The position numbers were made by a program, and so were the translations under genes. A stretch of 62,928 bases of DNA, the filler included, from Stramenopiles sp. TOSAG23-3 (lineage: Eukaryota): assembly GCA_900128585.1 (NCBI GenBank). It is 11 parts of 11 records of this genome, joined end to end, with 100 filler letters (N's around TTAATTAATTAA, not from the genome) between each part and the next. Parts side by side here need not be neighbours in the genome. Positions count along the whole stretch, not along the records: positions 33,114 to 41,277 come from LT643056.1; 10 more parts are not named here. One strand, written 5' to 3'. The notes beneath the pieces are model-generated. The model saw nothing but the letters and a program-made list of their open reading frames with translations, was not told the origin of the DNA and made no database searches. Every line of letters begins with the position of its first letter. Position 1 is the first letter of the stretch. Shown here piece after piece: positions 8,556-54,522 of this stretch.

Positions 8556-11500
8556 ATGGAGGCGCAACAATTTGAGCAATGCTTGCGGTCGCTGCAAACA
8601 TTGCTGAAATCTCAGAAGAAGGATGGAAAAAAGGGGGGCAAGGCGTTGTCCCTCAAGCGCCAAACGTACAAACAGATAACGCGCTTGCGGACGCATCTGC
8701 GAAAGTCACAGAGAGAGGCCGAAGCAAGAAACAAGAGAAAGGACAAAAGCAGCAACAAGACGACGTTAGAGAGCTTGCAGGTCCACTGCGAGAAACTGCT
8801 GAGCGCGATCGTGCAGCTGCCGCAGCTTCAGAACCAATTGACACGCCCTTTGCGGACTATTGTCGCTGACTGCTACGGTCTGATATATATGGCTGGGTCT
8901 ACGCGGACCATGTTTGATTCTTTGGCGCGGTGGGTTCAGATACTTAACGATAAAAAGACCGTGCGAAACGCCAGGTGCGCCGTGCTGGCGTGTATAGAGA
9001 AGTTGTTTGTAACGCAGGGAAAAAATATTTCGTCGTACCTCCCGGACGTTTTGGGGGCCTGTACGAAGCAGCTAAAGCTGTATTCGCACGAGAACGTGGA
9101 GGTCCGGAAGGGGGCCGTTACTTGCATTTGCGAAGGAGTGTCTTCCTGCGGAACATCTGGAAAGCACGCGCACATGGCTGCGTTGAAATTCTTCAAAATT
9201 GCAACTGGTGACAAGGAGGGTGAGGTCCGCACTTGCGTCGGGAAAGGGGTCGCAAGCCTTGCCCTTGCGTGCAACATTTTTGAGTCTACGCCACTGGAAT
9301 TGATGCTCAACGTGGCAATCAAAGGGGTCGACGATAAAGACGAGAGGGTAAGGTTGTCGTACGCCCGTGCCATCAGCACAATGTTTGCAATTTCTATTTT
9401 AAACCCACCGACGGAGGCAGAAAAGGAAAAAGAATCGAAGCCGGCCAAACAGGGGATTTTTAAAACGGCGAAAAAGAAACCACTATATTTTTCGATGGCT
9501 TCCGCCGTATCTTATTTGTGCGCCAAGATGCAAAAGGCTTCTACCAACAAGTTTCGTTTGGGGATTGCCCATACCATAATCGAATTGATACAGCAGCCTT
9601 ACACGATTGAGATTGTCATGTCCCCGGACATATTGTCAACAATTCTGGACCAACTGCTAGGCCTCGTGAGAGTCGGGACCACGAAACAACAGTCGTCTGC
9701 CGAATATTTAGAATATTCGCAGGCGTTGGTATCGTTTATATGCCGTCGGTCTCTTAGCAAAGGGAGATCAGAACGCCATCTCGGTCTTATCGCTTCGTCC
9801 GTCGTTGATAGATTGCAGCCCGACAAGTCCGACCTGTTAGAAGATTACCAGATAGTGGTCCTGTTGGCGCTGCTCGCTCAGGTGCTGTCCGCTCTTGGGG
9901 ATGCGAGCGGAAGTCTCGGCAAAAAAGCGATGGACGTCTTGGACGACATGGTAGTGCACTCTAACCATTTAGTGCGCCTGGAGGCAGCGGCATGCTGTCG
10001 TTCGCTGATGACGGCGCTTCCAAGCGTTGGGAGTACGATGCTCGACAAGTTGGTCGAAAGGATGGTCGTTGATCACGGGGACCTTGTAAATTTAGCCGTC
10101 ATTGGCAACGGCAGGAAAAAGCCTAGCAAGTCCGACCAGGTTCGCGCAATACAACTTTTAATAGGGCTTCGAGGGCGCAGCCTTGCCGTCGCAGCCCTCC
10201 TGTTGGCCGTCCCTGCTTGCCCTCTTGGGGTTCCTCGCTCAACCACAAACACTGTCCTGTATTTGTCAACGGCCCTTTTGCACCAGTACGCGGACGAAGA
10301 CATGCTGGCCAGCGCGTCGTCGGCCTGTGCCCGGGCTGGTTGGACGCTCGTTGCGGGCGTCATCGGATTGGGTCCTTCGACTATCCGCCCCCATCTTCAG
10401 AATATGATGACTATTTGGAAAGAAGTGTGCCGCCCTAGAGGGCCGCATACGTTGAACCCGACGAAAACGTCTTTGTCCGAGTTAGAAGTCGTTGCTACGG
10501 GAATGGGTGCCTTATCTCTTCTTTTGTCCAGTTGGCCTTCCTTGCAGGTTGACGACGAGGAAGCCATGGGCGAGTGTGTGCAGTGTGTTCTCAACGTGGT
10601 GTCGGCACTATCGCCCCCGCAAAGTTCTTTGGCGGCGCTGGCAAGCAGGAAAAATGTAAAACCCGCCGATGTTGCGTTCATTTCGTTGTACGCCACGTCT
10701 TTGGAGGCCTGCACAAGGCTCGCGCATGCTGGAAAATTGAATTCCGCACTTCCCGCGCTGGTCCAATCCACGGTCAGCGCGTTTATCGACGGCACGTACG
10801 GTCAGACGAGTTTGTTGGATGCTTTACCAATGCTTGATTCAAGCGATGCTGTGTTGCAGGTTGGGGAGCGAAGTTGGCCAGGTATCAATAGAGGACGTGA
10901 TGACGACGCGTACGGGGTAGAAGATGCCGATATACTTCAAGAACCATACCTGTTAGGGCTGGGACGGGATTACTCTGGGCTGAATCCACTCGAGTTGGAG
11001 TTTGCCCTCATCAATGCAATGGCTTGGGCAGCACCAATTGTCGCCAACGGTGCGGGAAAAGGAAAGGAAATTTTGGGCCCGAGGCGATCTTGGCGCCCGA
11101 GTGACTCACCGCCTAGTCCCCGGGCACTCCAAAGGCACGTTGACTCCGCGCTTGGCCTGTTTTGCTCTGTGTTCCCAATTTTGGCCCCTGCCACTCGGCG
11201 ACAAGTTCTGGACGGATTTGTAAAATCTTTGAAAGCTGCCCAAGTCAAAGCGAACGCTACAACTGCATTTGCTGCGCGGAATATTTTAGCGGCAATGCTG
11301 GGGGCAAGCAAGGCCTTGATTGCCCAAGGAGACAATCCCTCACGAAGCAAGGTGGATGAGGCGAAGACTGCCAACGGGAAGCCCAACAATCAGTGGCAGA
11401 GCGTATTTAAAAGCCTCTTAACCAAAGCGTTGAGTATAGAGGACAGCATCGCTCGCCGTGCGGCTGGTGAAGCAATTGGGTACATGGCTCTGGCTCTGAA

Positions 11501-14500
11501 CGACGGTCCATTCGCCAAAGTCGTCGAAAAGACTCTATACGCGCCTTTCAAGTCTCCTGCACCAGGCAAAGCAATCAGTGAGCACTATCGCGCCGGTGCA
11601 GTGTTTGCACTGGCGTGTATTAGAAGGAGACTTGGAAGTATGTACCGGAGCTCCTCGGTCCCATCTCCGTTCTACTACAACCAAGCAAAAGGAACAACGC
11701 AGCCCGTCCGAACTTGGTCGCTCCACTCGTGGTGGATTCTGCTGAACACCATAAGTGTCGATTTCGACAAGTACGTGCAACCAACCATGGCCTTGGTCAA
11801 TGCGCATCTTCTAGCGGGGCGGATAACGGAGAAAGATCGGGAGAAAGAACCTTATGAGGGGCAAACGAATGCTAGTGTTCTAGTTTGCCTCGGGCGATTG
11901 ATAAATTCAATCGCGGGAGGGCTCGGCCCGGATCTTGTTGCCTTCCAGGACACCGACCAACTTTGGGCTTGTTGGGAAGAATTGAAATTGAGTGATTTTG
12001 ATATTATCCAGTCGGAGTGCCTGTCCTTTGTGGAGCAAATTGCCATGTTTTCCCCCCAAGGATTCAATGCTTCTGGAAGCAGTGCCGTGGGTTATAAACT
12101 GCTTGCAAAACGGATCCATGATGGTCGCACAGAAAGCTGTCAACTGCATTCGTAGAATAGTGGAACGCCACAACGACCTGTCGTTTGAAATAGCCCCCTA
12201 TTTGTTTCATGAGTACGACCGGAGGTATTCCGTAATGGAATTTGCCCCCGCAGTAACGTCAATGGGAAACTTTGGAGTGGCTACCCCAGATTCTGATGGT
12301 TCCTCAAAAGCAGCACAAAGAAGTATTTTGACAAACAGCCACGTGCCGGCTCTTAATGCCACGGACGGGGCCGGTTTGGTCATGCTGAGGGCAAAGACTT
12401 CTCCTCGCGGAAGCAACCATGAACTTTCCATGTCGAGACACGCTTTTATCGAAGACATTCGTGATGCATTGGTAGATATGGTATGCCTTAACCACAAAAC
12501 CCCGCCATACTGGACCTCAAACTGGTTCAAAATTATCCAATCTGTCATAATATCAAGCTCAAAAAAGCGTCGGGGATCAAACGCGTCTGCCGATGGAGAG
12601 GAGGACGAAGATACTGACAAACCTAAGAAACGAAAAAAAACAAGACAAGGATCAGAACCTAGTAATAAAAAAGTGCTAGATTTGCCTGAGCCAGACTGGT
12701 GGCCATTAAACGCAGTCAGGTGGCAAACAAAAAATGTTGCTCTGGAGTGCATGCAGAAGCTGGTACGAATGGCGAGTCATTCATGCTTTGCCAAAGAACA
12801 CTTTAATTTGGAAGAAGCAAAGAAAGCATCGGGGGACTACTTAGTTTTGCATCTGCGCGAGATAATTCAAATCGGTTGTATGATGGCGACGTCGTCGACA
12901 GAGGGCGGAGAGCTGTACCAAATGCAAACTCTAGGAATTACTTTCGTTGGGGATATAATCGAGCTGTTTGCACGAACAAAAGATCCTGGCGATCCTTCAG
13001 CAGCACTGTTGCTTCAGTACGAAGCGCAGCTGAATAGTGCACTCCGCCCTTGTTTCAAGAAGGAATCGTACCCCCCATTAACAATACACGCATGTCGCTC
13101 TGTTGCATCCATGATAAGTCTCGGCATCAGTTCGGATGTTGCTATGGCGAGACGTGCAGTCAAAACCTTATTAGCCGGCGCTGACTTGAAAGTTAAACCA
13201 TGTCCTCCAGTAGCAGAAAAACACCAGGAACACGTAACCATGTGCAAGCTGTTAGCAAGGCTTGCGGCATTAGGCACTCTCCAAGTGTCTACTGTCGACC
13301 CGAAACAGCTGGAATGGCCAAGCCTTGATATAGAAAAAAGCGAAAACGATAAGGTAAGGGTGGAGCCTGGAATGCGGAAAGCTCTGTCGAAAGCGTTAGC
13401 ACAATCGCTACCTGATCTGTCGAGGTATTGGTTCACTGCATTGCGAGACTATGTCTCGTTGTACGCCCGAGCAAATGCTGTGATGGGAGGCAAAAATACT
13501 AGAATTCCTGTCCCGGAGAGCAGCCTTCTGGAATACAATGAAGATGCAGCCCAGGTAACTACGGTTTTCGAAGAATTGTGGCCCACAGTTGCAGAGGCAG
13601 TGACTTCTCTTGCTGGGACAAACCTGTGGCCTCTAGATCAAGCATACGGTGACGGCGAGGCGGGTGAAAAAAATATACATGACGACAATTATGATTTAAT
13701 GGTCGGCGTGTGCTTGCGGTATTTAGCCCGGTCCCCGTCTGGTGGGAACATACCGTTGCCGTATATTATTCCAAAAGCCAAGAAGTGTTTTACGGTCCTC
13801 AGGTGGTTGTTTTTGCCTGGATCTATATCGATCACTAGGATTTCTGGGAAATATGCAGTCGAGATTGTAAATGTACTGGCAAACGGTTTGGCACACATTG
13901 AGCAAGGTCATGGTGATATATCCATACTTGGCACGGAGACCATTGCGATGTTGGCACGAAACGGGGCTTGGTTAGACAAGGCATTGAAGCCAACACAGAG
14001 AGAAACCACTTCAGACTATGCCTTGGCACACGCATTTATTGAATTTTCATCAAGAATAATCCACCATCAGATCGCAAGAAGCATCGGCATTCCAATGAAA
14101 GACATATCGGTGTCAGGAAAGATATTAAATGACAGCGGAAGACGCAAACCTCTCATGAAACGAGAACTTCAGAAAGTTATTGCTGCGCTGGAAATCTTGA
14201 CTGGTGTGTTTGCTGCCATGGACGTAGAATGTTTAGACCAGTACCGGCCATCAATAATAAAACTACTTGTATCATCTCAAATTGCCTTTGTTTTTTCTGT
14301 TGGAAATAAATGCCATGAGCTTGTTCCACACTTCCAAAAACTGGCTGATACGATGGTAAGCCGCGATTCAGGCGCGAACGATCACCACTCATACAAGGTT
14401 TACCAGTTGTATGAAAGTGCTGTCAAGTCAGTGGTACATGTTTTGGAACAAATATCAGAGGGCACCATTTTTGACATGGAATCGCCGTCAATGGTGGGAA

Positions 14501-15036
14501 TGCTCTTCGGAACCGCGTTATCTCTCTGTAATTTATGTCGCACTGAAGTCCGACCAACGTTTACTCAGGATATCATGACAGCAGTGAATGGATGTTTGCA
14601 TCCTACTCGCTCTGTGGACATAAACCATGGCGCCGTTGTCTTTGTGCAAAACCTAATAGTTTCTAGTAGTGCGGTCGGTATCACCCCATCGGCCATGATC
14701 GGAGGTGTTGGGCCATTACTAATTCTGCTCCTACGAGAGGACTCGCGGCAACCGGATGACACAGATCTAAAATGTGCGATAATCAAAATACTGGTACAAT
14801 CCGCCTTGCAGATTTGTGACACCCCAGAGTACGCGGATCTGCTCTTCCAAGTTCTAGCCGGGTTCCAGCAAAGCGGCGATAGTCACGATGAAGCCAGCCT
14901 TGTGAGGAAACTGTGCGCTCAATGTGCACTACAACTTCTGAAGACTCCTCATGCACGTTTCAAGAATGCAGTTCAAAAACTTCCTGCTGATGTACAAGGG
15001 TTGTTACAGCAGGGTCTGAAGCGTGTGATGGCTTGA
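8556..15036 (+). CDS. HEATR5: HEAT repeat-containing protein 5 (HEATR5/SWEETIE/Laa1-like AP-1 accessory), split by a 1-nt frameshift at C6 12052-12057
   Basis: Family-like motifs RRAAGEAIG, RAGAVFALACI, VRTWSLHS, CLGRLINSIAGGLGPDL, RWQTK, DYLVLHLREII, LLLQYEAQLNSALRPCF; removing one C gives a single ~2159-aa ORF reading IAMFSPKDSMLLEAVP. Confidence 0.85.
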
Positions 15037-36369: not shown

Positions 36370-37389
36370 TTACCGCGACAACGGACTCCTGCTCCGGTCC
36401 CTTTCCCCATAGCTGTCTCCACGCGGTCTCTCCCCATAGCTACCACCGCGGTCTCTCTCACTCCAGCTCTCGCCACGGCTTCTCTCTCCCCAACTGCCTC
36501 CATGGTCCCTGCCACCCCAACCACCACCACGGCCTGTCTCCCCCCAGCTCCCACCACGGTTGCCATCGTCGCCGTAATTAGAACTTGCATTGTACGCGTC
36601 ACCGGTATGGCGCCGAGGGTTTCGTCTGTAATGCCCCGTTTGGCCCGCGGGATTGCCCTGTTCGGTCGCCCACCCATAACCAGACATTTGAGCTTTACCA
36701 GTATTGTTCCAACCTGCACCATCACCATCATCAATTTCTCCATCCTCTAATATTTCCCCGTCTTCGACCGCCCCATCCTCTGTTTTTCTCTTTGCCTTTT
36801 CCGCTCCGCCCTGTTCCACTCCATCGGTAGCAGCTCTCTTCCCACTTTCACCCTTTGACGGTCGTTTCGACCCCGGCGTCTTTGAAATGATGAAATCGGT
36901 TGTTTTGTACACTTCTCCAGTCACGACGTGAAAGCACTCTTTCTCCCCCCCCGGCAACAGCTTGTAAGCAAACCCTTCACGGTCGTTCGGGTCCCTCCAA
37001 AACGTGGTTTTCGTTTCCCTATTGTAGTAGTACGGCTTGCCGGCAGATTTGCTAAACTCCAACGACCACGCTGGGGGTAGCCCATGCACGCTCTTTGGCA
37101 CATTTAGCCATTCCTTTTGGCGAGTTTTTTCCCCGTTCATTATATTGATATATTCCTTCCTTTTCCCAACGACATGGAAGCCCCAGCCAGCCGGCGCGCC
37201 GTCGACTTTCCAATAGCGTTCCCTTGACTTTTCGTTGAAGTAAAAGTATTTCCTCGTCGACGTCGACTGCTCCAAACGCCAGTCCTCCGGCAAAGAGTCC
37301 CTCTCTTCGTCAACGAGATTGTCCGCATCGGCATCAATATTCTGCCCGTCCTGCTCGGCAGCCCATTTTAACAACAGATTCTCTGCCAT
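36370..37389 (-). CDS. WW-domain protein with tandem EDGEI motifs and an RGG/RS-rich tail (probable RNA-processing factor)
   Basis: LPEDWRLEQSTSTRKYFYFNEKSRERYW, LPPAWSLEFSKSAGKPYYYNRETKTTFWRDP; EDGEILEDGEI; GGSWGE repeats; RSRSP. Confidence 0.85.
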   Translation of the reverse strand: MAENLLLKWAAEQDGQNIDADADNLVDEERDSLPEDWRLEQSTSTRKYFYFNEKSRERYWKVDGAPAGWGFHVVGKRKEYINIMNGEKTRQKEWLNVPKSVHGLPPAWSLEFSKSAGKPYYYNRETKTTFWRDPNDREGFAYKLLPGGEKECFHVVTGEVYKTTDFIISKTPGSKRPSKGESGKRAATDGVEQGGAEKAKRKTEDGAVEDGEILEDGEIDDGDGAGWNNTGKAQMSGYGWATEQGNPAGQTGHYRRNPRRHTGDAYNASSNYGDDGNRGGSWGETGRGGGWGGRDHGGSWGERSRGESWSERDRGGSYGERPRGDSYGERDRSRSPLSR

Positions 37390-37697
37390 AATAACACAAT
37401 ATTCGAGTGTAGCTGCTAAAAAAATAAACAGCAAATTATTCCCTTTGAACGACTGCGTACAGGAGTATTTCTCAAACGCCTACTTTCCTTACCACGCAGT
37501 TTGCAATCCGCTGTTTAGAAAACTACACAAGACTTTGAAAGTTCAACCTTGAATTTTTGAATCCCTTGATCTTATACATAGATGAAATAAACTATAATAT
37601 ACTTATCACTTCTTTGTTGGTAAAAAATATATTAACGACGACTATTATTAATACTACTACAACAAAATTATAATATTTTTAAAAAGAAAATAAATGT

Positions 37698-37698
37698 A

Positions 37699-37744
<46 letters not shown>
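37698..37744. repeat. Poly(T) tract
   Basis: ~46 T with a single C. Confidence 0.9.
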
Positions 37745-37745
<1 letters not shown>

Positions 37746-37994
37746 TCGTCGCTTTTCTCTGTCGTATAATAATAAATAAATAAATATAAAAAATATCTAA
37801 AAAAAGAAGTTCCAGCAGAAGAAGAAGAAAGAAAAGAAAGAAGAGGCCGCCGCCTGCATAAGTGGAATAAGAGGCAAGCAAATCCGTGTGTTTGGGTGGT
37901 GGTGTGGGGTGTGGAATGAATAATAATACCTTAGTTATTAAACTAAAATACATTGTATAATGTATTGTATTATCGCCGCCCGCTCTTCTCTTTT

Positions 37995-38125
37995 AATTCT
38001 TCTTCTATTCTTCTTTTCTTTCTTTTTCTTCTTCTTCTCTTCTTCTTCTTCTTCTTCTTCTTCTTCTTCTTCTTCTTCTTCTTCTTTCTTCTTCTTCTTC
38101 TTTCTTCTTCTTTCTTCTTCTCCCT
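37995..38125. repeat. (TTC)n microsatellite; also 41378-41452 and (GAA)n/(TTC)n tracts at ~29130-29270 and 29470-29630
   Basis: Directly visible. Confidence 0.9.
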
Positions 38126-38346
38126 TCTTTGTTTTTGTTATGTAAAACAGGCATATGATTTTCTATTAATATATACCGTAATGAAAATACAAGCAGTTGA
38201 GAATATGTGGAAAATACTGACCGTTTATCTTACAGTGATGTGTCCACTGCATCAAACGATATACCAGACAGACTCGACAAAAGGGTTCTGGTTAACTGCG
38301 GAAAGAACGTTTCTTTGTTTGAACCCACCCCCTCCCTGCTTCAACA

Positions 38347-39888
38347 ATGGGTAAGCGCGTCCTAGAACTGCGTGGCAGTGGACTGTCGCTCAAGACCTTG
38401 GTATTTTTCTCACGGGCCCCTCGGGATACAATATTGATAAAAGTTTCCGCATCGTCAATAGAAAAAATGAAAACCAATAGAAAATTTGCGGAGACAGTCG
38501 CGGGTCGTGGTGACGCGGTATATGGACTTTCCGTTGGGGTAGGCGTGCGGAAGAAGACTAAAAAAAAAAGGAGCGAGCTTGTTGAGTTCAACAACAGGAT
38601 GGTCAGGGACCACAAGAGCGCGATTGGCCCAAGCCTGCCGACTGATGTTGTAAGGGCTGCGGCGATCCTCCTACTAAACACCCTTGCCGCGGGGCGCACC
38701 AACGTAAGGCCAATGCTCGCCAGTCACTTTGCCGATCGATTATCCAACGGCCCAGAACTGCAGGGCGTGCCAATCTACGGAGGCACGGGGGTAGGGGACG
38801 TTGCCCAACTACCATTTTTGATACTCGACCTTCTCCGAGGTTTTGGTGGCGAAGGAGACATTCGTCTGACCACAGGTGAAGCGCTGCCGCTCATTGCCCA
38901 AAGTAGCATAGTCGCTGCGCACAGCGCTCTTGCAATTTACGACACCGAAATATTGTTGGAAGAGCTAACAGCAAATGCTGCGTTGGATTTAGAAGCATAC
39001 TCGGCGAATCCATCACCTTACAGTGAAATGGTGGGAACGGTAAGGCCGTACGCAGGTTACCAAAAGGCACTGAGAAAAATTCGGAACTACTTGCATGGTG
39101 GGTCCTTGACGAGCAGCATTGCTAAGAAACCGAAACACTTGCAAACGCCGCTGTCGTTTCGAACCTTAGGGATTGTGCTAGGATCGGCGTTCGACGCCCT
39201 ATCGTTCTGTAAGAAACAGATCGCCGTAGAATTGAATGCCCACCAGCAGAACCCGCTGGTGCTGGAGGAAGAGGACAGGATGATGGGGTGTGGGAATTTT
39301 GATATGCAAGCGGTAGCTGCCATGCTTGACTTTATGCGGATTGCTGTGGCACCGTGCTTGACCTCCCAAACGGAACGGTCTATTAAGTTGCTTCAGAAAA
39401 GCGAAACCGGGCTGACTGATGGTTTGGAACCATTAGACGACGCAGGCGGGCACGGATTATCAGAAATTGCGTGGCCGCTGCAAGGCCTTTGCGTGGAAGC
39501 AAAATCTTTGGTGACACCGGTCAGCTGTGAAATCGGATCAAGCTCTCAGGCGGAGGGAATTGAAGATCGAATGTCAATGGCCGGGCTTTCTGCTCGTCGG
39601 CTACATGATATGGTTGCTTTAGGCTTTCGGTGCTTAAGCATAAGCACTGTCATCAGCAACCAAGCCATCGATTTGAGGAATAAAATGGAGGCCCAATTCC
39701 AACAAGGAACCGACTTGGAAGAATCGCATCGCCGGATGAGAGAACTTGTTCCGGAAATGAAGAAATTGTCCAGAGTCCCGGGCCCGGATGCAATGGAGGC
39801 GTTGTATAAAGGGCTGCAAGACGGCCTTTTGTCCAAGTGTGCCAGCAAAAGACCTGCAACCAATCGGTTGAGTCCATGCAAGTTGTAG
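38347..39888 (+). CDS. Aromatic amino acid lyase (HAL/PAL) superfamily protein lacking the MIO ASG triad (ergothionase-like); PTS1-like CKL end
   Basis: VYGLSVGVG, GGTGVGDV where GSVGASGDL is expected, QTPLSFR, ELNAHQQNPLV, GNFD, GIEDRMS; ends SPCKL. Confidence 0.9.
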   Translation: MGKRVLELRGSGLSLKTLVFFSRAPRDTILIKVSASSIEKMKTNRKFAETVAGRGDAVYGLSVGVGVRKKTKKKRSELVEFNNRMVRDHKSAIGPSLPTDVVRAAAILLLNTLAAGRTNVRPMLASHFADRLSNGPELQGVPIYGGTGVGDVAQLPFLILDLLRGFGGEGDIRLTTGEALPLIAQSSIVAAHSALAIYDTEILLEELTANAALDLEAYSANPSPYSEMVGTVRPYAGYQKALRKIRNYLHGGSLTSSIAKKPKHLQTPLSFRTLGIVLGSAFDALSFCKKQIAVELNAHQQNPLVLEEEDRMMGCGNFDMQAVAAMLDFMRIAVAPCLTSQTERSIKLLQKSETGLTDGLEPLDDAGGHGLSEIAWPLQGLCVEAKSLVTPVSCEIGSSSQAEGIEDRMSMAGLSARRLHDMVALGFRCLSISTVISNQAIDLRNKMEAQFQQGTDLEESHRRMRELVPEMKKLSRVPGPDAMEALYKGLQDGLLSKCASKRPATNRLSPCKL

Positions 39889-40089: not shown

Positions 40090-40863
40090 CTAGTTCCCCC
40101 TAAACGATAGCAGCCTCCCCGCGGCTTTTCTCCCTTGCACGTCGTTCGTTACCTCCTCTGGATCCGGAGGGACCGCTGCATCTGGTACTGCGAAACTCGT
40201 CTGGGTCGGGTTAACGGCAACATAAACTAAAATTGCGGCAATGGCAAGCACGACCAAAAGAAGAAAGACCCAGACGAGCTTGTCGGTCATCACCCGTCTT
40301 CTCAAAACATTAACCGCTTTGGAGGCTCGCTCTATCTGACTTTGAATGTTTCCTGCTTTCGTAATGATCCGATTCAACTTTTCGTTGTTCTCGTCGAGTT
40401 GTTCATTAATTTTCACACCTGTCTGCAAAATTTCCTGGGCCGTTGTAACGGACGAGTCTGCAAGTTCCACGTTCTTCTTTGCTAAATTAACGGTTTCGTC
40501 CGCGATATCTTTGCTGGTCAGGTCCTTTTTTCTCTCCGTCCCCATTAGCTCGTTTGACTCGATCGCGGTCCGCAGCCAGTTCAGCTGCTTGACTATCTCT
40601 TTCTGTCGTGCCATAAATTCTCGATGAAGCTGCTTGGCCTCTTCCCTGTCCGCACCGTTTCCCATGGAAAGGTATGCCTTCTTCATCTGCAAAAGAACAT
40701 CCTTTAAACGCTTTAGTTTACCGTCACTCTTGCTGTCTATTTTTTTAAATAATTCTTGCTTCTCCCTTTCAGACATCTTTCCCCCCCTCATCTTTTGGAC
40801 CGTCCCTTCCAAGTCTTCCACCAGCCGTTCCACCTTCTCTTGGTAGTACGAATAGTCCGTCAT
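40090..40863 (-). CDS. Qb-SNARE (NPSN/VTI1-like)
   Basis: Likely start MTDYSYY; N-terminal helical bundle, SNARE heptads, RRVMTDKLVW followed by a C-terminal TM. Confidence 0.82.
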   Translation of the reverse strand: MTDYSYYQEKVERLVEDLEGTVQKMRGGKMSEREKQELFKKIDSKSDGKLKRLKDVLLQMKKAYLSMGNGADREEAKQLHREFMARQKEIVKQLNWLRTAIESNELMGTERKKDLTSKDIADETVNLAKKNVELADSSVTTAQEILQTGVKINEQLDENNEKLNRIITKAGNIQSQIERASKAVNVLRRRVMTDKLVWVFLLLVVLAIAAILVYVAVNPTQTSFAVPDAAVPPDPEEVTNDVQGRKAAGRLLSFRGN

Positions 40864-42649
40864 GTTGCCAAAGGAGCCCTTGTATATAAAACCAACGTTG
40901 TGTCCCAATGATTAGAGGCGAGGTTTTGAAACAATCTACGATTCTAATGCGGAGGTTAGTATTTGTAAAGAATATCTCACTGTTAACTCGTATGAAATAA
41001 TGCAATTGACGGAAACAAGTTAATTCATCCCTCGTTGCATTTGGCATGATTCGTTGTAGTAGTAGGTAGTATTTAATAATGTACCAAGGTAGTAGCAGCA
41101 TCATCCTCAGCATCATTACATAATACCGAAGAAGGAGATAAATAAAATCTGCTGCTGCTGTGGATGTGGATGTGGATGGGATTATTTATTATTATTTATT
41201 TAGTCTAATTGTCATCTATCTACGGTATCCTATACAAGAAGAAAAAATATTATATAAATAAACAACAACACAACACTNNNNNNNNNNNNNNNNNNNNNNN
41301 NNNNNNNNNNNNNNNNNNNNNTTAATTAATTAANNNNNNNNNNNNNNNNNNNNNNNNNNNNNNNNNNNNNNNNNNNNTTCTTCTTCTTCTTCTTCTTCTT
41401 CTTCTTCTTCTTCTTCTTCTTCTTCTTCTTCTTCTTCTTCTTCTTCTTCTTCTCTCAATTTTTGTTTTTGTTGTTTTTGTTGTTTTGTTGTTGCTCTTCT
41501 CGCTTTCGCACCTTCCTTCTCGTCACACAACTCACAACAACAAACAGGAACACATCATTAGCATCGGCACATCACGATCGGAAGGGGAAAAGGCAGCATT
41601 TTGAGGAGAAGAAAAGATGCTCTCCTTCTTTTTCTTCAAATATTTTATAATATTTTTATTTTTATAAAGAAATAAATATTTTGTGTGAATGAGCAACGTT
41701 CACATTTGTTTTATTATAGTAAAATAACGATATTAATATGATATTTATATAGGAAGGAAGGAAACAAAAAAAATATTGAATTCCCTTATTATTGTATTGT
41801 GTATCATTATAAAAATATTTGGTTTTGTTATATTTATAGGCATGTTTTATTAATTCATATATTAACTCAAGTACGAAGTATATTTGGAATATAAATAATG
41901 AAGCCCTTCTTCCTTGTTTGTCTTTTGTCTGCCACTTCGGTTTTTAATTTCTTACTTACGAGTGTTAATAATAACTGCGCAACTTGGCCGGACCTTTCTT
42001 CTCTTGGTTTCAAAAACTTTTACAGTTTCTGGAAATATGATTTTGTAAGTGTTTTATGTCGTCTCGGCCACGATCCCAGAAGTATAAGAAAATAAAATAA
42101 GCCTTGCCTACTTTATAAATTAAACAACGTAAACGAACTGGAGTGGACCATTAGTGCTTTTTGCGAACAGTTCTTCTTCGAACAACTTTAGTAATTTAAA
42201 TAATAACAACCGCATAAAGAAGGAAGAGGAAGAACGATTTAAAATAAAAACAGTCCTGCATTCCTTTCCTTCCTTCCTTCCTTCCTTCTTTGACGTTAAT
42301 TATTAATTTGCTTCATTTATTATAAAATATCAAACTACAACAAGCAAACGACTGAAAAGTGGAACAGTAGGAACAGTAGGAACACAGTGAAAGGGATTGG
42401 TCAATACTATTCACCCCGACAATCATTATTATTACTACTAACTTCGATGCTATTTCCCTACTTTTCCTCTCCTCATCGTCTCGTCTCTTCTACTTCGTAT
42501 TTCCTATTCTTTGCTCCATTTCTTCAAGTGGCTTCCGTGCAACACACGGTCGAACCAACGAATAACAGTTTCGATTCCACAAAAGAGAACACCGAGTTTA
42601 GTTTTCTACCGGATTACGTTTGTAATACTAACACTCCTGACTTCATAAC

Positions 42650-51558: not shown

Positions 51559-54522
51559 ATGGTGTTACTGGAGTGCATACGGGGTGGTTCGGAAGTGTAC
51601 GGTGACCTTGATGAAATCAAAGCGGGTGCCCTTGTGAGCGACCAGAACGACGAAGTAGGGGAGGATGGGGTAGCGAATATTGATTATAAAATTGCCCACG
51701 AGTACTGCAAGGCCTGCGTTCCTCGGCGTGTGATGGAAGTAGACCCTTCGGCCCCTGACGGGATCGCACGAGACGCCAACGGCGTCCCGATTCGCCGGTT
51801 GCGGCAGCCAGGGGACCAAGGTACCCCAAGTCTGTACACGGTCTTTGGCTGCAAGTCGTCCCACAAGGCCCTGTACGACTTTGGGATTGGCGTAGGGCTG
51901 TACTTTCACCAGCTTTTGGAATTTTCTGTCCTCTGCGCGGTCCTGTTCGCGGTCAACCTCCCTGTCCTGCTCTGCAACACAACCTTCAAGCGGCACCTGG
52001 AAAGCGGCGGTCCAGCGCCACCCAATATTTGTGGGTTGAATTTTGAGGACATGAAGAAGCAATACGTTGATGCCGGGATTTGGCCGAGCAACTATACCAT
52101 CGCTCAGTTAGACTACAAAACAAATGCAGACTGGAAGTCCATGGGGGATTATGGTCACATAAAAACGCAGGTCACTGCCCTACAGGCGGCCGTAGAGTTT
52201 GCAAGTGTGTTCATCATGCTTGCGTTTCTTTTCTTTTCGAAGATGTACAATGAAAAGTTTGCCACCAAGATTGATTTGTCCATGCAAACTGCGCAAGATT
52301 ACGGGGTGATCGTGACCAGCCGATCGGGATTTTTGCCGAGGAATGCGAGCGACATCAAGCAGGCGTACAAGGAGCTGCTGCCAGCGTATGAAGTGGTCAG
52401 CGTGTCGCTCGTCTACAACAACCGCAAGATGTTCAAGCTCCTCCGGAAACTGGTGCTTCAGCATCGCGCGCTCATCAGCAAGCGCGTCAACGAGCTCAAA
52501 AACAAGAAAAAGAATGTGTCGAAAGCAGACTTGGAAAGGATAGAAGGCCAGGCGAAGAAGGAGGCCAGGGAGGGCAAAAAAATCAAAGTGGAAGGCGCAA
52601 AAAAGTTCGGCATTGGCTGCGATTTTAACATTCACGCCCACCGTTATTACGAGTTGTTGCACGAGATTGACGAGTTGAACAAAGAGATCGAAGCAGACTC
52701 AGAGCGGAAGCCAAAGGCGGCGTACGTTGTATTCGATACCGAAGGCGGCGCAAGGACTGCGTGCGAATTATACGGGCAGAGTTCCCTGGAAAAAATGAAC
52801 TTATGCGGCTGCACGGAGAACATCCAGCGAGTGAAAGACGTGTACAACTCCGGCCGAGACCCGCTCGTAACGGACCTAATACAGGCCTGTAACCACGAGG
52901 AAGCCAGGGAACCGTCGGATTTGCTGTGGGAAAACATTGGCGTTAGCAACATGGAAGTCAACGTGAGAAGCAGTCTCTCATGGGTTGCCGCGGGAGTGGT
53001 GTGCTCGATCTTGTTTGGGATCCTTCTTGCCATGAAAGGGGACCAGGCTCGACAAAAGGCGGGGAACTCGGTGGGCGGCGACTACGTGGACGCTGCCCTT
53101 TCCACCGTGGCCTCCATGGTCATTGTCGTGTTGAACATGGCCCTTCCCAGGGTCATGAAGGCGTCTTGCAGTGTTGAGGTTCATAAATCGGTCACCGACA
53201 AGCAGAACTCAATGATGACAAAGCTGTCCATCGTTCGATTTTTCAACACAGCTATTCTAACCTTCCTCCTTACCCCGTCGGGTAACGTTCTGAGCTCCCG
53301 CACAATCACGGACGTGCAAAGTATTTTGATTGCCGACCTTACCATCCCGGCGATGAGCAGGTTGGTGGACGTGTACAACCTGGTCATGCGTTACGGGGTT
53401 GGGAGATCCGCCGCGACGCAGACGCAATTAAATCAATATTTCAGCGGGACGGAGTGGAAGCTTGCCGAGCGATACACTGACGTGTCAAAAACTATATTTG
53501 TATGCTTGTTCTATGGAGCCATTCTTCCGTCTGGGTACGCAATTTGCGCGATTACCTTTTTGGTGACCTACCTGACCGACAAATACTTGCTCCTACGCCG
53601 GTGGAGGGAGCCCCCGAAGTACGACGACGAGATGACAAAGCGAAGCCGAATGCTGCTCTTCATGGGCGTCTTGGCACATGTGTGTGTCACCAAATTCTTT
53701 TACGACTTCTGGCCATTTATCTGCCCGAAAGGCAAAGAAGATGACTGCAACAAGCCGATCAGCCAGGCAGTTGGAGTCCGCAAGCCCACCATGGATGACG
53801 CGCCAAGCACGACAACCATCGCTATTATTATGTTTATCGTCATGATTGCTACTATTGTGTACTTCTTGAAAGAAACCATCCTGTCTAAACTTTACAGCGT
53901 TTGGAAACGGTATTGCACAGCAAAGCATGCAGAGCAAGGTGGGCGTGCAACGAACTTGAGCTACAGCACAAGAGAAACCATCGATACGTACGAGCCCAGG
54001 CTTGACATCCCGCCGCTCGATATTCCTTGCGTTCTCCGCCGGGGCAAGTATGAAAAACCGACCGGATTTTCCACGTACATGCACGATGTTGCCTGCAAAA
54101 CAATGTCAGATTTTACTGGCCAGGAGAACTGGAAATTTGCTGGCCAAACAAGTGCACCAAAACAGCCATTTACGTCAGACAAGATGTTCCAATTTAAGCT
54201 GTGGTTCACCCACACCGCGGGAACGAAAGCTGCGCCGGTCAACGCGGCCGCCGCCATGCTGCAGCAGCAACAAGCGCAGCAGCAACGAATGCTACTGGAG
54301 CAGCAACAATTGCAGATGGCGCAGCGACTGGCGATGGGACAGAGGGGCCCAGCACCGCAAATAAATCCAATTGGTGCTGGTGGGACGGTTGCGATTCAGG
54401 TAACAATACCCCATGGGGTTGCGCCAGGAAGTTTGATGAGCGTTCAAACTCCGAAGGGGCTAGTTCAAGTCAAAGTCCCCTTCGGAATGGCCCCTGGAAT
54501 GCAATTTGTGGTGAATGTTTGA
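51559..54522 (+). CDS. OSCA/TMEM63 (CSC1)-like mechanosensitive channel with a Q-rich linker and a C-terminal VxIPxGxxPG module
   Basis: FGIGVGLYF, TAQDYGVIV, AYVVFDTE, EAREPSDLLWENI, DKYLLLR; ~10 TM segments. Confidence 0.85.
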   Translation: MVLLECIRGGSEVYGDLDEIKAGALVSDQNDEVGEDGVANIDYKIAHEYCKACVPRRVMEVDPSAPDGIARDANGVPIRRLRQPGDQGTPSLYTVFGCKSSHKALYDFGIGVGLYFHQLLEFSVLCAVLFAVNLPVLLCNTTFKRHLESGGPAPPNICGLNFEDMKKQYVDAGIWPSNYTIAQLDYKTNADWKSMGDYGHIKTQVTALQAAVEFASVFIMLAFLFFSKMYNEKFATKIDLSMQTAQDYGVIVTSRSGFLPRNASDIKQAYKELLPAYEVVSVSLVYNNRKMFKLLRKLVLQHRALISKRVNELKNKKKNVSKADLERIEGQAKKEAREGKKIKVEGAKKFGIGCDFNIHAHRYYELLHEIDELNKEIEADSERKPKAAYVVFDTEGGARTACELYGQSSLEKMNLCGCTENIQRVKDVYNSGRDPLVTDLIQACNHEEAREPSDLLWENIGVSNMEVNVRSSLSWVAAGVVCSILFGILLAMKGDQARQKAGNSVGGDYVDAALSTVASMVIVVLNMALPRVMKASCSVEVHKSVTDKQNSMMTKLSIVRFFNTAILTFLLTPSGNVLSSRTITDVQSILIADLTIPAMSRLVDVYNLVMRYGVGRSAATQTQLNQYFSGTEWKLAERYTDVSKTIFVCLFYGAILPSGYAICAITFLVTYLTDKYLLLRRWREPPKYDDEMTKRSRMLLFMGVLAHVCVTKFFYDFWPFICPKGKEDDCNKPISQAVGVRKPTMDDAPSTTTIAIIMFIVMIATIVYFLKETILSKLYSVWKRYCTAKHAEQGGRATNLSYSTRETIDTYEPRLDIPPLDIPCVLRRGKYEKPTGFSTYMHDVACKTMSDFTGQENWKFAGQTSAPKQPFTSDKMFQFKLWFTHTAGTKAAPVNAAAAMLQQQQAQQQRMLLEQQQLQMAQRLAMGQRGPAPQINPIGAGGTVAIQVTIPHGVAPGSLMSVQTPKGLVQVKVPFGMAPGMQFVVNV

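Follow-up and report, generated by a model that had tools for sequence, protein, structure and literature searches.

A histidine ammonia-lyase-fold gene lacking the Ala-Ser-Gly motif, with a candidate peroxisomal targeting signal, in Stramenopiles sp. TOSAG23-3

We analyzed a 62,928-nucleotide stretch of DNA from Stramenopiles sp. TOSAG23-3 (GCA_900128585.1), referred to here as the window, and concentrated on an open reading frame (ORF) at positions 38347 to 39888, in the part derived from LT643056.1. The ORF encodes a lyase homologue with the PF00221 fold, the fold of histidine ammonia-lyase (HAL), and its shortened loop is without the Ala-Ser-Gly that gives rise to the 4-methylideneimidazole-5-one (MIO) cofactor. 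This is almost certainly a real eukaryotic MIO-less gene. Its sequence relationships make an actinobacterial origin very probable, and the product is likely peroxisomal, judging from a C-terminal peroxisomal targeting signal type 1 (PTS1). Taken together, we propose with roughly even confidence a functional nuclear protist gene for a peroxisomal lyase that would eliminate trimethylamine from a sulfur-free histidine betaine or a relative of it. To our knowledge, HAL-fold lyases without MIO are known only from a handful of bacterial enzymes, the ergothionases and recently two Shewanella histidine-betaine lyases, and the literature searched (most subscription journals lie outside it) reported no eukaryotic or peroxisomal MIO-less member. 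As judged from the sequences, the new elements are a MIO-less subfamily, common to freshwater Thermoleophilia and a clade of protists and including the present gene, its presence in eukaryotes through what appears to be one ancient transfer from Actinomycetota, and a conserved putative PTS1.

The MIO-less lyase homologue and its predicted active site

The features of the ORF are listed below. Residue roles are second-hand, from extracts of the bioRxiv preprints of Bertsova et al., and were mapped by motif and spacing on the alignment to ergothionase 6S7J and on an alignment of 207 relatives.

38347..39888, plus strand: MIO-less lyase homologue of the PF00221 fold, complete intron-less ORF, 513 aa plus stop (ORF call, translation, Pfam)
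38521..38544, plus strand: Tyr loop Y59-GLSVGVG (residues 59-66), Tyr59 being the presumed beta-proton acceptor (alignment; role from the preprints)
38611..38613, plus strand: His89, equivalent of the imidazole-binding His of histidine-type lyases (alignment; role from the preprints)
38779..38799, plus strand: shortened 'cofactor' loop G145-G-T-G-V-G-D151, without Ala-Ser-Gly (translation, alignment, independent contigs of runs X5 and X11)
39142..39162, plus strand: Q266-TPLSF-R272, with the carboxylate-binding Gln and Arg (alignment; roles from the preprints)
39235..39255, plus strand: N297-AHQQ-N302-P303, with two conserved Asn; HQQNP stands where HAL and ergothionase have xxDNP (alignment)
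39472..39474, plus strand: Trp376, at the position of the thiolate-binding Lys384 of ergothionase (hand count on the 6S7J alignment)
39562..39570, plus strand: E406-D407-R408, Glu406 being the equivalent of the imidazole-binding Glu and Arg408 replacing the His of HAL and ergothionase (alignment; role from the preprints)
39835..39885, plus strand: C-terminal extension, residues 497-513, absent in bacterial relatives and ending in the PTS1-type C511-K512-L513 (39877-39885) (alignment)

The translation has zero internal stops and terminates in ...LSPCKL* (513 aa). Residues 28-465 match positions 13-465 of the 466-position PF00221 (Lyase_aromatic) profile (E 3.2e-71), and the score of 240.8 bits against a cut-off of 27.3 places the protein in the family fold over nearly its full length, in agreement with a preliminary description of the sequence that had called a full-length HAL-fold ORF. 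No fused extra domain was found in the Pfam scan. The NCBIfam HutH models gave only 190-201 bits against cut-offs of 524-539, below the level of canonical HutH. The AlphaFold2 model has a mean predicted local distance difference test score (pLDDT) of 88.8 and a predicted template modeling score (pTM) of 0.92; its top Foldseek matches were ergothionase 6S7J (template modeling score, TM, 0.86; E 2.6e-27) and Pseudomonas putida HAL 1B8F (TM 0.86; E 2.9e-26). Treponema ergothionase 6S7J, the comparison suggested earlier, is the closest solved structure by sequence (E 5.6e-30; identity about 24%) as well as by fold, but with E values so close the fold search on the model cannot tell ergothionase from HAL.

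A MAFFT alignment was made of the 207 near-full-length relatives (430-820 aa) among 267 proteins. The MIO enzymes, that is, HAL, phenylalanine and tyrosine ammonia-lyases (PAL, TAL) and tyrosine and phenylalanine aminomutases (TAM, PAM), carry Ala/Ser/Thr/Cys-Ser-Gly in the loop, which cyclises to MIO. In the sequences with G[AS]SGD (20 of the 207, the ASG rows) the loop is one residue longer than in our query and the other 186, and both the translation and the alignment show the query loop to lack X-Ser-Gly and to contain no Ser at all. Because the loop is without Ala-Ser-Gly and one residue short, MIO cannot form in the lyase, as had been claimed from the GGTGVGD at 38779-38799. The protein falls outside the MIO-dependent ammonia-lyases and aminomutases and inside the MIO-less group, which has the PF00221 fold, lacks Ala-Ser-Gly and keeps the catalytic Tyr.

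The loop is not an assembly slip, because independent contigs cover 38779-38799 without a difference. Contigs of four public runs were compared, X5 and X11 being DNA of two studies and X15 and X16 RNA libraries. The loop DNA is identical in both marine metagenome runs, which are independent and belong to different studies (X5 record 25, 38734-39781; X11 records 1 and 2, 38435-38796 and 38778-39352), and the intact Ala-Ser-Gly that would have indicated an assembly error does not occur in these contigs over the loop. P0002, a 513-aa protein from other public assemblies that is 98% identical, agrees with the query in both the loop and the CKL end. The Val of the loop had also been taken as a clue to the substrate, in contrast to an acidic residue in ergothionases; it is uninformative, because the ergothionase-like clade is itself E3/M2/A1 at that column.

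Extracts of the Bertsova et al. preprints (bioRxiv 2025/2026) describe the MIO-less PF00221 enzymes characterized there as trimethylammonia-lyases that need an alpha-trimethylammonium group, trimethylamine being a leaving group good enough to do without MIO. The carboxylate is bound by Gln, Arg and Asn, the imidazole nitrogens by His and Glu, and the beta-proton is accepted by a Tyr; in the Treponema enzyme, the ergothioneine thiolate is bound by Lys384, an essential residue. We compared these positions in the 207-row alignment among 12 query-like eukaryotic, 17 bacterial sister, 6 second eukaryotic subclade, 6 ergothionase-like and 20 ASG rows. Tyr59 is invariant in a separate alignment (A1), in the 207-row alignment its column holds Tyr in all 200 sequences that have a residue there, save one Arg, and the Tyr loop YGLSVGVG is kept in the translation (residues 59-66) as previously noted. 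His89 and Glu406 are each conserved in 12/12 query-like, 17/17 bacterial sister, 6/6 ergothionase-like and 20/20 ASG rows. Gln266 and Arg272 are conserved in the alignment, and Asn297, at Arg+25 by the spacing counted on the 6S7J alignment, matches Asn339 of Swoo_3913, which according to the preprint extracts binds the carboxylate. All six of the residues listed there (Tyr59, His89, Gln266, Arg272, Asn297 and Glu406) are conserved in the query-like and bacterial sister rows, so that by sequence the lyase has the carboxylate-binding and imidazole-binding residues of the MIO-less trimethylammonia-lyases.

Other positions set the subfamily apart. The Lys384 column, for which the 6S7J chain index is the published number minus 1 (as seen for Tyr54), holds Trp in 12/12 query-like and 17/17 bacterial sister rows and Lys in 5/6 ergothionase-like rows; the Lys of ergothionase sensu stricto is accordingly Trp376 in the query. 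Position 269 is Leu in the query and in ergothionase, Leu or Ile across the MIO-less groups, and Tyr (the HAL YSxR) in 20/20 ASG rows. Position 408 is Arg in the query's groups and mostly His elsewhere. The residues specific to the subfamily are HQQNP for xxDNP, EDR for EDH, and QSS where HAL has NGT (SSN is also found elsewhere). In the second eukaryote-like subclade (P0030, P0032, P0034, P0035, P0038 and P0043), Tyr59, Gln266, Arg272 and the PTS1 ends are retained, and His89 is replaced by Thr (6/6), Trp376 by Phe (5/6) and Glu406 by Gly (4/6); this coordinated loss of the imidazole binders suggests a switch to a non-imidazole substrate in that subclade.

Eukaryotic setting, C-terminal tail and probable bacterial origin

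The gene lies between two eukaryotic genes on the opposite strand, with a low-complexity tract on its upstream side.

36370..37434, minus strand: WW-domain protein with an RGG-rich tail, eukaryotic, upstream neighbor (PF00397, E 2.3e-10)
37657..38130, no strand: poly(T)/poly(A) low-complexity intergenic tract at which short-read contigs break (F/K runs in ORF translations; repeats skipped at 37683-37844 and 37996-38129)
40090..40908, minus strand: SNARE-like membrane protein, eukaryotic, downstream neighbor (weak V-SNARE_C match, E 0.002, below cut-off)

The Pfam scan covered 22 large window ORFs and matched 15 of them, mostly to families typical of eukaryotes (Arf, RCC1, HMG-box, HEATR5 repeat, anoctamin, EF-hand, RING-helicase and C2H2 zinc finger); further families are the Rubisco-LSMT substrate-binding domain, LRR and inositol monophosphatase. 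The window genes are long intron-free ORFs on both strands, and the neighbors of the lyase are functionally unrelated to it. The 4.7-kb stretch around the gene was present in 20 of 24 listed public runs (10 studies, several of them marine metagenomes). Record 26 of X5 spans 39808 to beyond 41000 with 0 differences, joining the end of the lyase, by way of the intergenic region, to the complete SNARE-like ORF. The eukaryotic window families and this contig bear out the earlier assignment of the gene to a eukaryote. Of the two junctions that were to be checked, the downstream one is thus confirmed and the upstream one is not, since no contig of the four runs spans the tract at 37683-38129; this break is a coverage gap at a repeat and not evidence against linkage. 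The long T and A runs of 37657-38354 also give spurious poly-F and poly-K ORFs, and contigs of all four runs break there. RNA-library contigs fall on the lyase gene (four pieces in X15, one in the poly-A library X16; none of X15 over 36771-38654), which fits transcription of the gene.

Fifteen population single-nucleotide variants were found in the lyase ORF, nine of them synonymous, and the six replacements (residues 34, 40, 110, 479, 496 and 505) lie outside the motifs. An A10 homopolymer at 38560-38569 accounts for the KKK in RKKTKKKR, a surface stretch rich in Lys, and is confirmed by X11 and X5 contigs; the 98% identical allele P0002 has RKNRDVER at this site, nearer the family consensus.

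Bacterial relatives stop near query residue 496 (...GLLA), and the eukaryote-like sequences run about 15-25 residues further. In the 44-row tree described below, PTS1-like [SACP][KR][LM] ends occur in 13 of 18 eukaryote-like rows and in 0 of 26 bacterial rows, which much strengthens the PTS1 reading. The types in the 18-row clade are SKL (six), SRL (four) and PRL (two), with further ARL and CKL variants; among the 207 aligned family sequences only 14 have an [SACP][KRH][LM] end, 13 of them in this clade and one, the ARL of the distant P0194, outside it. Residues 506-513 are the only segment of the lyase model with a pLDDT below 50, so the tail is predicted to be flexible, as expected if it is exposed. 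The protein has an [SAC][KRH][LM] terminus on a tail predicted to be accessible, with the signal kept in most rows of the eukaryote-like clade and absent in the bacterial rows of the tree. Extracts of two papers (PMC4526572, PMC9244630) describe CKL as a working PTS1 in yeast Idp3 and in a cryptophyte (Guillardia) malic enzyme that reaches diatom peroxisomes, and the suggestion that the C-terminal CKL is a plausible PTS1 is well founded on both counts. Peroxisomal enzymes of the HAL family also have a precedent, because a canonical PTS1-bearing HAL of Trypanosoma cruzi is tabulated among kinetoplastid glycosome candidates in the part of PMC7237986 consulted.

A word-indexed protein search with the lyase returned 165 matches among 7999 scored candidates, all of them PF00221, and at least 50 or so proteins among the best 120 of the 165 were 47-59% identical to it. 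An exhaustive search of representatives gave 3877 matches at E <= 1e-3, and 155 of them reached E <= 1e-30; a Protein Atlas search yielded generic PF00221 clusters only. From bacterial species-representative genomes, 430 of 555 pattern matches were confirmed as homologues, and the bacterial taxonomy given here is that of the best 80 of the 430 loci. All 80 are titled Actinomycetota taxa save one 'uncultured bacterium', the names being Gaiellales, Gaiellaceae, Thermoleophilia, 'Actinomycetes', one Mycobacterium metagenome-assembled genome (MAG) and two Bifidobacterium-labelled MAGs; the closest, at 52-59% identity, are freshwater Gaiellales/Thermoleophilia MAGs. The two MAGs titled Bifidobacterium (L002 and L012) carry a Gaiellales-type gene in a Gaiellales-like Ccm/heme/TatC context and group with Gaiellales/Thermoleophilia, so their labels look wrong.

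A quick maximum-likelihood tree was made of 87 chosen rows (22 of the best 80 loci, 40 family proteins and 25 distant representatives). A branch with support 100* splits seven ASG rows from 80 MIO-less rows, with the query on the MIO-less side. Near the MIO-less base is a six-row ergothionase-like clade, several strongly supported (starred) branches from the query; it was placed via P0264 (E 3.1e-177 to 6S7J, the sole row so compared) and not via characterized sequences, and the query does not group with it. A second, careful tree of 44 rows (LG+C20, posterior mean site frequency model; supports as ultrafast bootstrap/Shimodaira-Hasegawa-like approximate likelihood ratio test) was rooted with more distant Gaiellaceae paralogues. 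The query falls in an 18-row eukaryote-like clade (100/99), which is sister (94/88) to ten freshwater Gaiellales/Thermoleophilia rows, and both groups are nested in further Actinomycetota rows (99/95, 99/96). Because of this root, the direction of transfer would be from bacterium to eukaryote, and the proposed bacterial acquisition fits the tree.

We term the 18-row clade eukaryote-like from the context of the window, the label of P0006 (Ectocarpus fasciculatus) and the neighbors of homologues on two metagenome contigs, L100 and L101 (L101 being an excerpt of a 26-kb contig), which end in SKL and lie near genes for an AMOP domain, a pectinacetylesterase, a major facilitator superfamily (MFS) transporter and a NOL1/NOP2/Sun-type methyltransferase. 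These two eukaryotic homologues have a dN/dS of 0.125 (dN 0.091, dS 0.729), indicating purifying selection. Nesting within canonical HAL, which the preliminary description had allowed for, is not seen in the 87-row tree, where the 100* branch separates the query from the ASG rows.

Side observations concern more distant relatives and the rest of the window. Distant MIO-less PF00221 proteins (P0161, P0167, P0202, P0260, P0266, P0204, P0185 and P0071/P0123) are fused to EAL, PAS-GGDEF-EAL, cNMP-binding, arginase, cysteine-dioxygenase-like or GNAT domains, and some MIO-less branches may be sensors or parts of bifunctional enzymes. The N-terminal extension of P0122 (805 aa) is of low complexity; domain scanning returned nothing for it and it gave no functional clue. 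In the window, two plus-strand ORFs at 8556-12155 and 11992-15036 (1199 and 1014 aa) share about 160 nt that are read in different frames, and the latter has a Laa1/Sip1/HEATR5 repeat; the two may be a single HEATR5-type gene split by a frameshift or a short intron. An anoctamin-like protein (51559-54522, plus strand) has only six relatives at E <= 1e-10 in 5.8 billion proteins, the best and sole named one being from a brown alga at 27% identity. Taken with the Ectocarpus label of P0006, this gives a faint stramenopile hint but not an assignment. The host lineage is marine and poorly sampled.

Proposed reaction and competing explanations

We propose that a single transfer brought the gene from Thermoleophilia/Gaiellales-like Actinomycetota into eukaryotes, and that it would then have gained a C-terminal tail of about 17 residues ending in PTS1. 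Because of this ending, the protein would most likely be imported into peroxisomes by PEX5. In the predicted active site, Gln266, Arg272 and Asn297 would hold the substrate carboxylate and His89 and Glu406 an imidazole-type ring, while Tyr59 would abstract the beta-proton for an anti-elimination of the pre-activated nitrogen; trimethylamine and a urocanate-type alpha,beta-unsaturated acid would be released. A trimethylammonium betaine is the expected substrate, because ammonia would be too poor a leaving group without MIO, and ergothioneine would be less likely than a histidine betaine free of sulfur, such as hercynine or a relative with a modified ring, because the thiolate-binding Lys is Trp in the query. 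By analogy with the characterized enzymes, we lean slightly toward trimethylamine-type elimination; a histidine-betaine-type substrate is possible, if somewhat doubtful.

The lyase resembles Treponema denticola ergothionase (6S7J/6S7Q) in its PF00221 fold, its short loop without Ala-Ser-Gly, a GVG Tyr-loop with the catalytic Tyr, the Q..PLSFR carboxylate motif and the imidazole-binding His and Glu. It differs in its low identity, its separate clade and the replacement of Lys384, DNP and EDH by Trp376, QNP and EDR; moreover, the Treponema enzyme is bacterial and described as cytoplasmic in the extracts consulted, whereas the query is eukaryotic with a PTS1 tail. According to the preprint extracts (bioRxiv 2025/2026), Swoo_3913 of Shewanella woodyi is a histidine betaine trimethylammonia-lyase and SO_3299 of S. 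oneidensis an N(pi)-methyl histidine betaine lyase. By the residue descriptions given there, both are like the query in being MIO-less and in keeping Tyr, Gln/Arg/Asn and His/Glu; the Lys384 position is a neutral Asn or Gln in them and Trp in the query, an analogy that also favors a sulfur-free histidine betaine for the query, and unlike the query they are periplasmic and coupled to flavocytochrome c reductases for anaerobic respiration. Canonical HAL (P. putida HutH 1B8F, T. cruzi HAL 6V6H) has a similar fold (TM 0.85-0.88) and the same substrate-binding residues, but it has Ala-Ser-Gly/MIO, a loop one residue longer and the Tyr of YSxR, none of which is present in the query. The Gaiellales/Thermoleophilia genes annotated as 'aromatic amino acid lyase' share the active-site signature of the query exactly (TG[MV]GD, PLIxQSS, NAHQQNP, AW.LQ, AEGIEDR) but have no C-terminal extension or PTS1 (ends e.g. 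GLLA), lie in a high-GC context and coexist with canonical HutH.

In the closest bacterial loci, genes for cytochrome-c maturation (Ccm) and heme synthesis are found around the gene, together with those for a PfkB kinase and an amidohydrolase of the TRZ/ATZ type. In five syntenic Gaiellales loci the amidohydrolase, 2.3-4.0 kb downstream, matches Pfam HUTI_composite. The match is misleading because the NCBIfam hutI model gives only 54 bits against a cut-off of 298; the amidohydrolase is of the TRZ/ATZ type, under every NCBIfam cut-off, and a link to a Hut operon was rejected. Replacement of HutH by the lyase homologue was likewise rejected, since canonical HutH coexists with it in the three genomes G001-G003. 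A conserved upstream ORF of the bacterial loci (321-337 aa) had no family match. The more distant Gaiellaceae paralogues (about 40% identity) adjoin MFS or ATP-binding cassette (ABC) transporters. Twelve loci were examined, and 4 of them have methyl-transfer genes (MetE-like, BHMT-like or RACo) no more than 5 kb away, one with a DAO-type oxidoreductase in addition; this context faintly suggests metabolism of N-methylated compounds. In an Actinomycetota MAG (genome G004, contig C14; L092 and L098), a MIO-less paralogue with the loop GSVGQADL and a second paralogue of urocanase are about 5.5 kb apart, an arrangement reminiscent of ergothioneine/hercynine catabolic clusters.

Several points weigh against the proposed peroxisomal trimethylamine-eliminating lyase. 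The nearest characterized enzyme is only about 24% identical to it, and the HQQNP, EDR and QSS changes make its pocket unlike those of both HAL and ergothionase. The prediction of a substrate from the missing Lys has failed once, because SO_3299, which is without the Lys, uses only N(pi)-methyl histidine betaine and neither hercynine nor ergothioneine (Bertsova et al., bioRxiv, in extracts). The neighborhoods of the closest bacterial relatives yield no substrate clue; on other contigs, G001-G003 each also encode one urocanase and a HutH of the canonical type (GSVGASGD); and EgtD (PF10017), sought as a marker of endogenous hercynine, was found in 0 of 5 bacterial genomes, which is not evidence of absence because these MAGs are incomplete. 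Peroxisomal import is predicted from the sequence alone, and 5 of the 18 clade rows have no PTS1-like end (one is SML), although some of these may be truncated gene models. Finally, the RNA-library contigs are no proof of transcription because RNA libraries can hold DNA.

That the lyase is a true ergothionase, removing trimethylamine from ergothioneine to give thiourocanate, is improbable. Ergothionase 6S7J is indeed its best PDB match by both sequence and fold, and the two have the shortened loop, the GVG Tyr-loop and the PLSFR motif in common; but HAL 1B8F is nearly as good a match by fold, the P0264 clade is several starred branches away, and the essential Lys384 is Trp376 in all 29 query-like and bacterial sister rows. 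With the low identity to 6S7J added, the term 'ergothionase-like' used in the preliminary description does not apply in a strict sense. An active MIO-independent lyase on another substrate class, such as a betaine not derived from histidine or a compound with a different good leaving group on the alpha-carbon, is unlikely but a live alternative. It would account for the pocket residues specific to the subfamily (HQQNP, EDR, QSS and Trp376) and for the MetE-like, BHMT-like, DAO-type and MFS/ABC transporter genes near the Gaiellaceae paralogues; the family also does shift substrates, because the sister eukaryotic subclade lost His89 (6/6) and Glu406 (4/6) while keeping Tyr59, Gln266 and Arg272. 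The query, however, retains both imidazole binders, and each characterized MIO-less member in the extracts of the Bertsova et al. preprints uses a histidine-derived betaine.

We also consider a non-catalytic or ligand-binding protein derived from the HAL fold to have a low probability. Other MIO-less PF00221 subfamilies are fused to EAL, GGDEF-PAS or cNMP-binding domains (5 of 10 long proteins scanned), which suggests sensor roles for some; the query has no such fusion, its catalytic Tyr and substrate-binding residues are invariant in the query-like eukaryotic and bacterial groups, and purifying selection is strong. Bacterial contamination or a chimeric assembly is very improbable. The nearest named relatives are bacterial, and no short-read contig crosses the low-complexity tract upstream, but an independent metagenome contig links the lyase to the downstream SNARE-like gene, and the lyase groups with other sequences on eukaryotic contigs. 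Its GC content at third codon positions (0.547) is like that of the other window ORFs (0.44-0.75) and far under that of the actinobacterial homologue regions (0.8-0.97), and the A10 run and the PTS1 tail are both absent in bacterial homologues. An alternative electrophile formed by the loop from Gly146-Thr147-Gly148, with which ammonia elimination would still be possible, is hardly credible. Cyclisation and dehydration of X-Thr-Gly is conceivable in principle, although we know of no precedent; Thr147 is kept in 34 of 35 rows of the query's three groups, but its column is a hydrophobic V/I/L position in ASG and other MIO-less enzymes and not the Ser position, and the loop is one residue short.

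Possible implications for the family and for marine protists

The gene offers what would be a clean example of bacterium-to-eukaryote transfer followed by the gain of an organelle-targeting signal. As a tentative and rather unlikely extension, marine protists might have an unrecognized peroxisomal route for the breakdown of histidine-derived betaines (hercynine, ring-methylated or ovothiol-related), with an enzyme captured from Thermoleophilia-like actinobacteria and a sister subclade retooled for a non-imidazole betaine. If the substrate is a histidine betaine, the lyase would provide a handle on the eukaryotic degradation of hercynine- and ergothioneine-type compounds, and it would be the first eukaryotic catabolic enzyme for this metabolite family. 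Such a route, if true, would add a protist source to marine trimethylamine and would make eukaryotic plankton direct producers of it from histidine-derived betaines.

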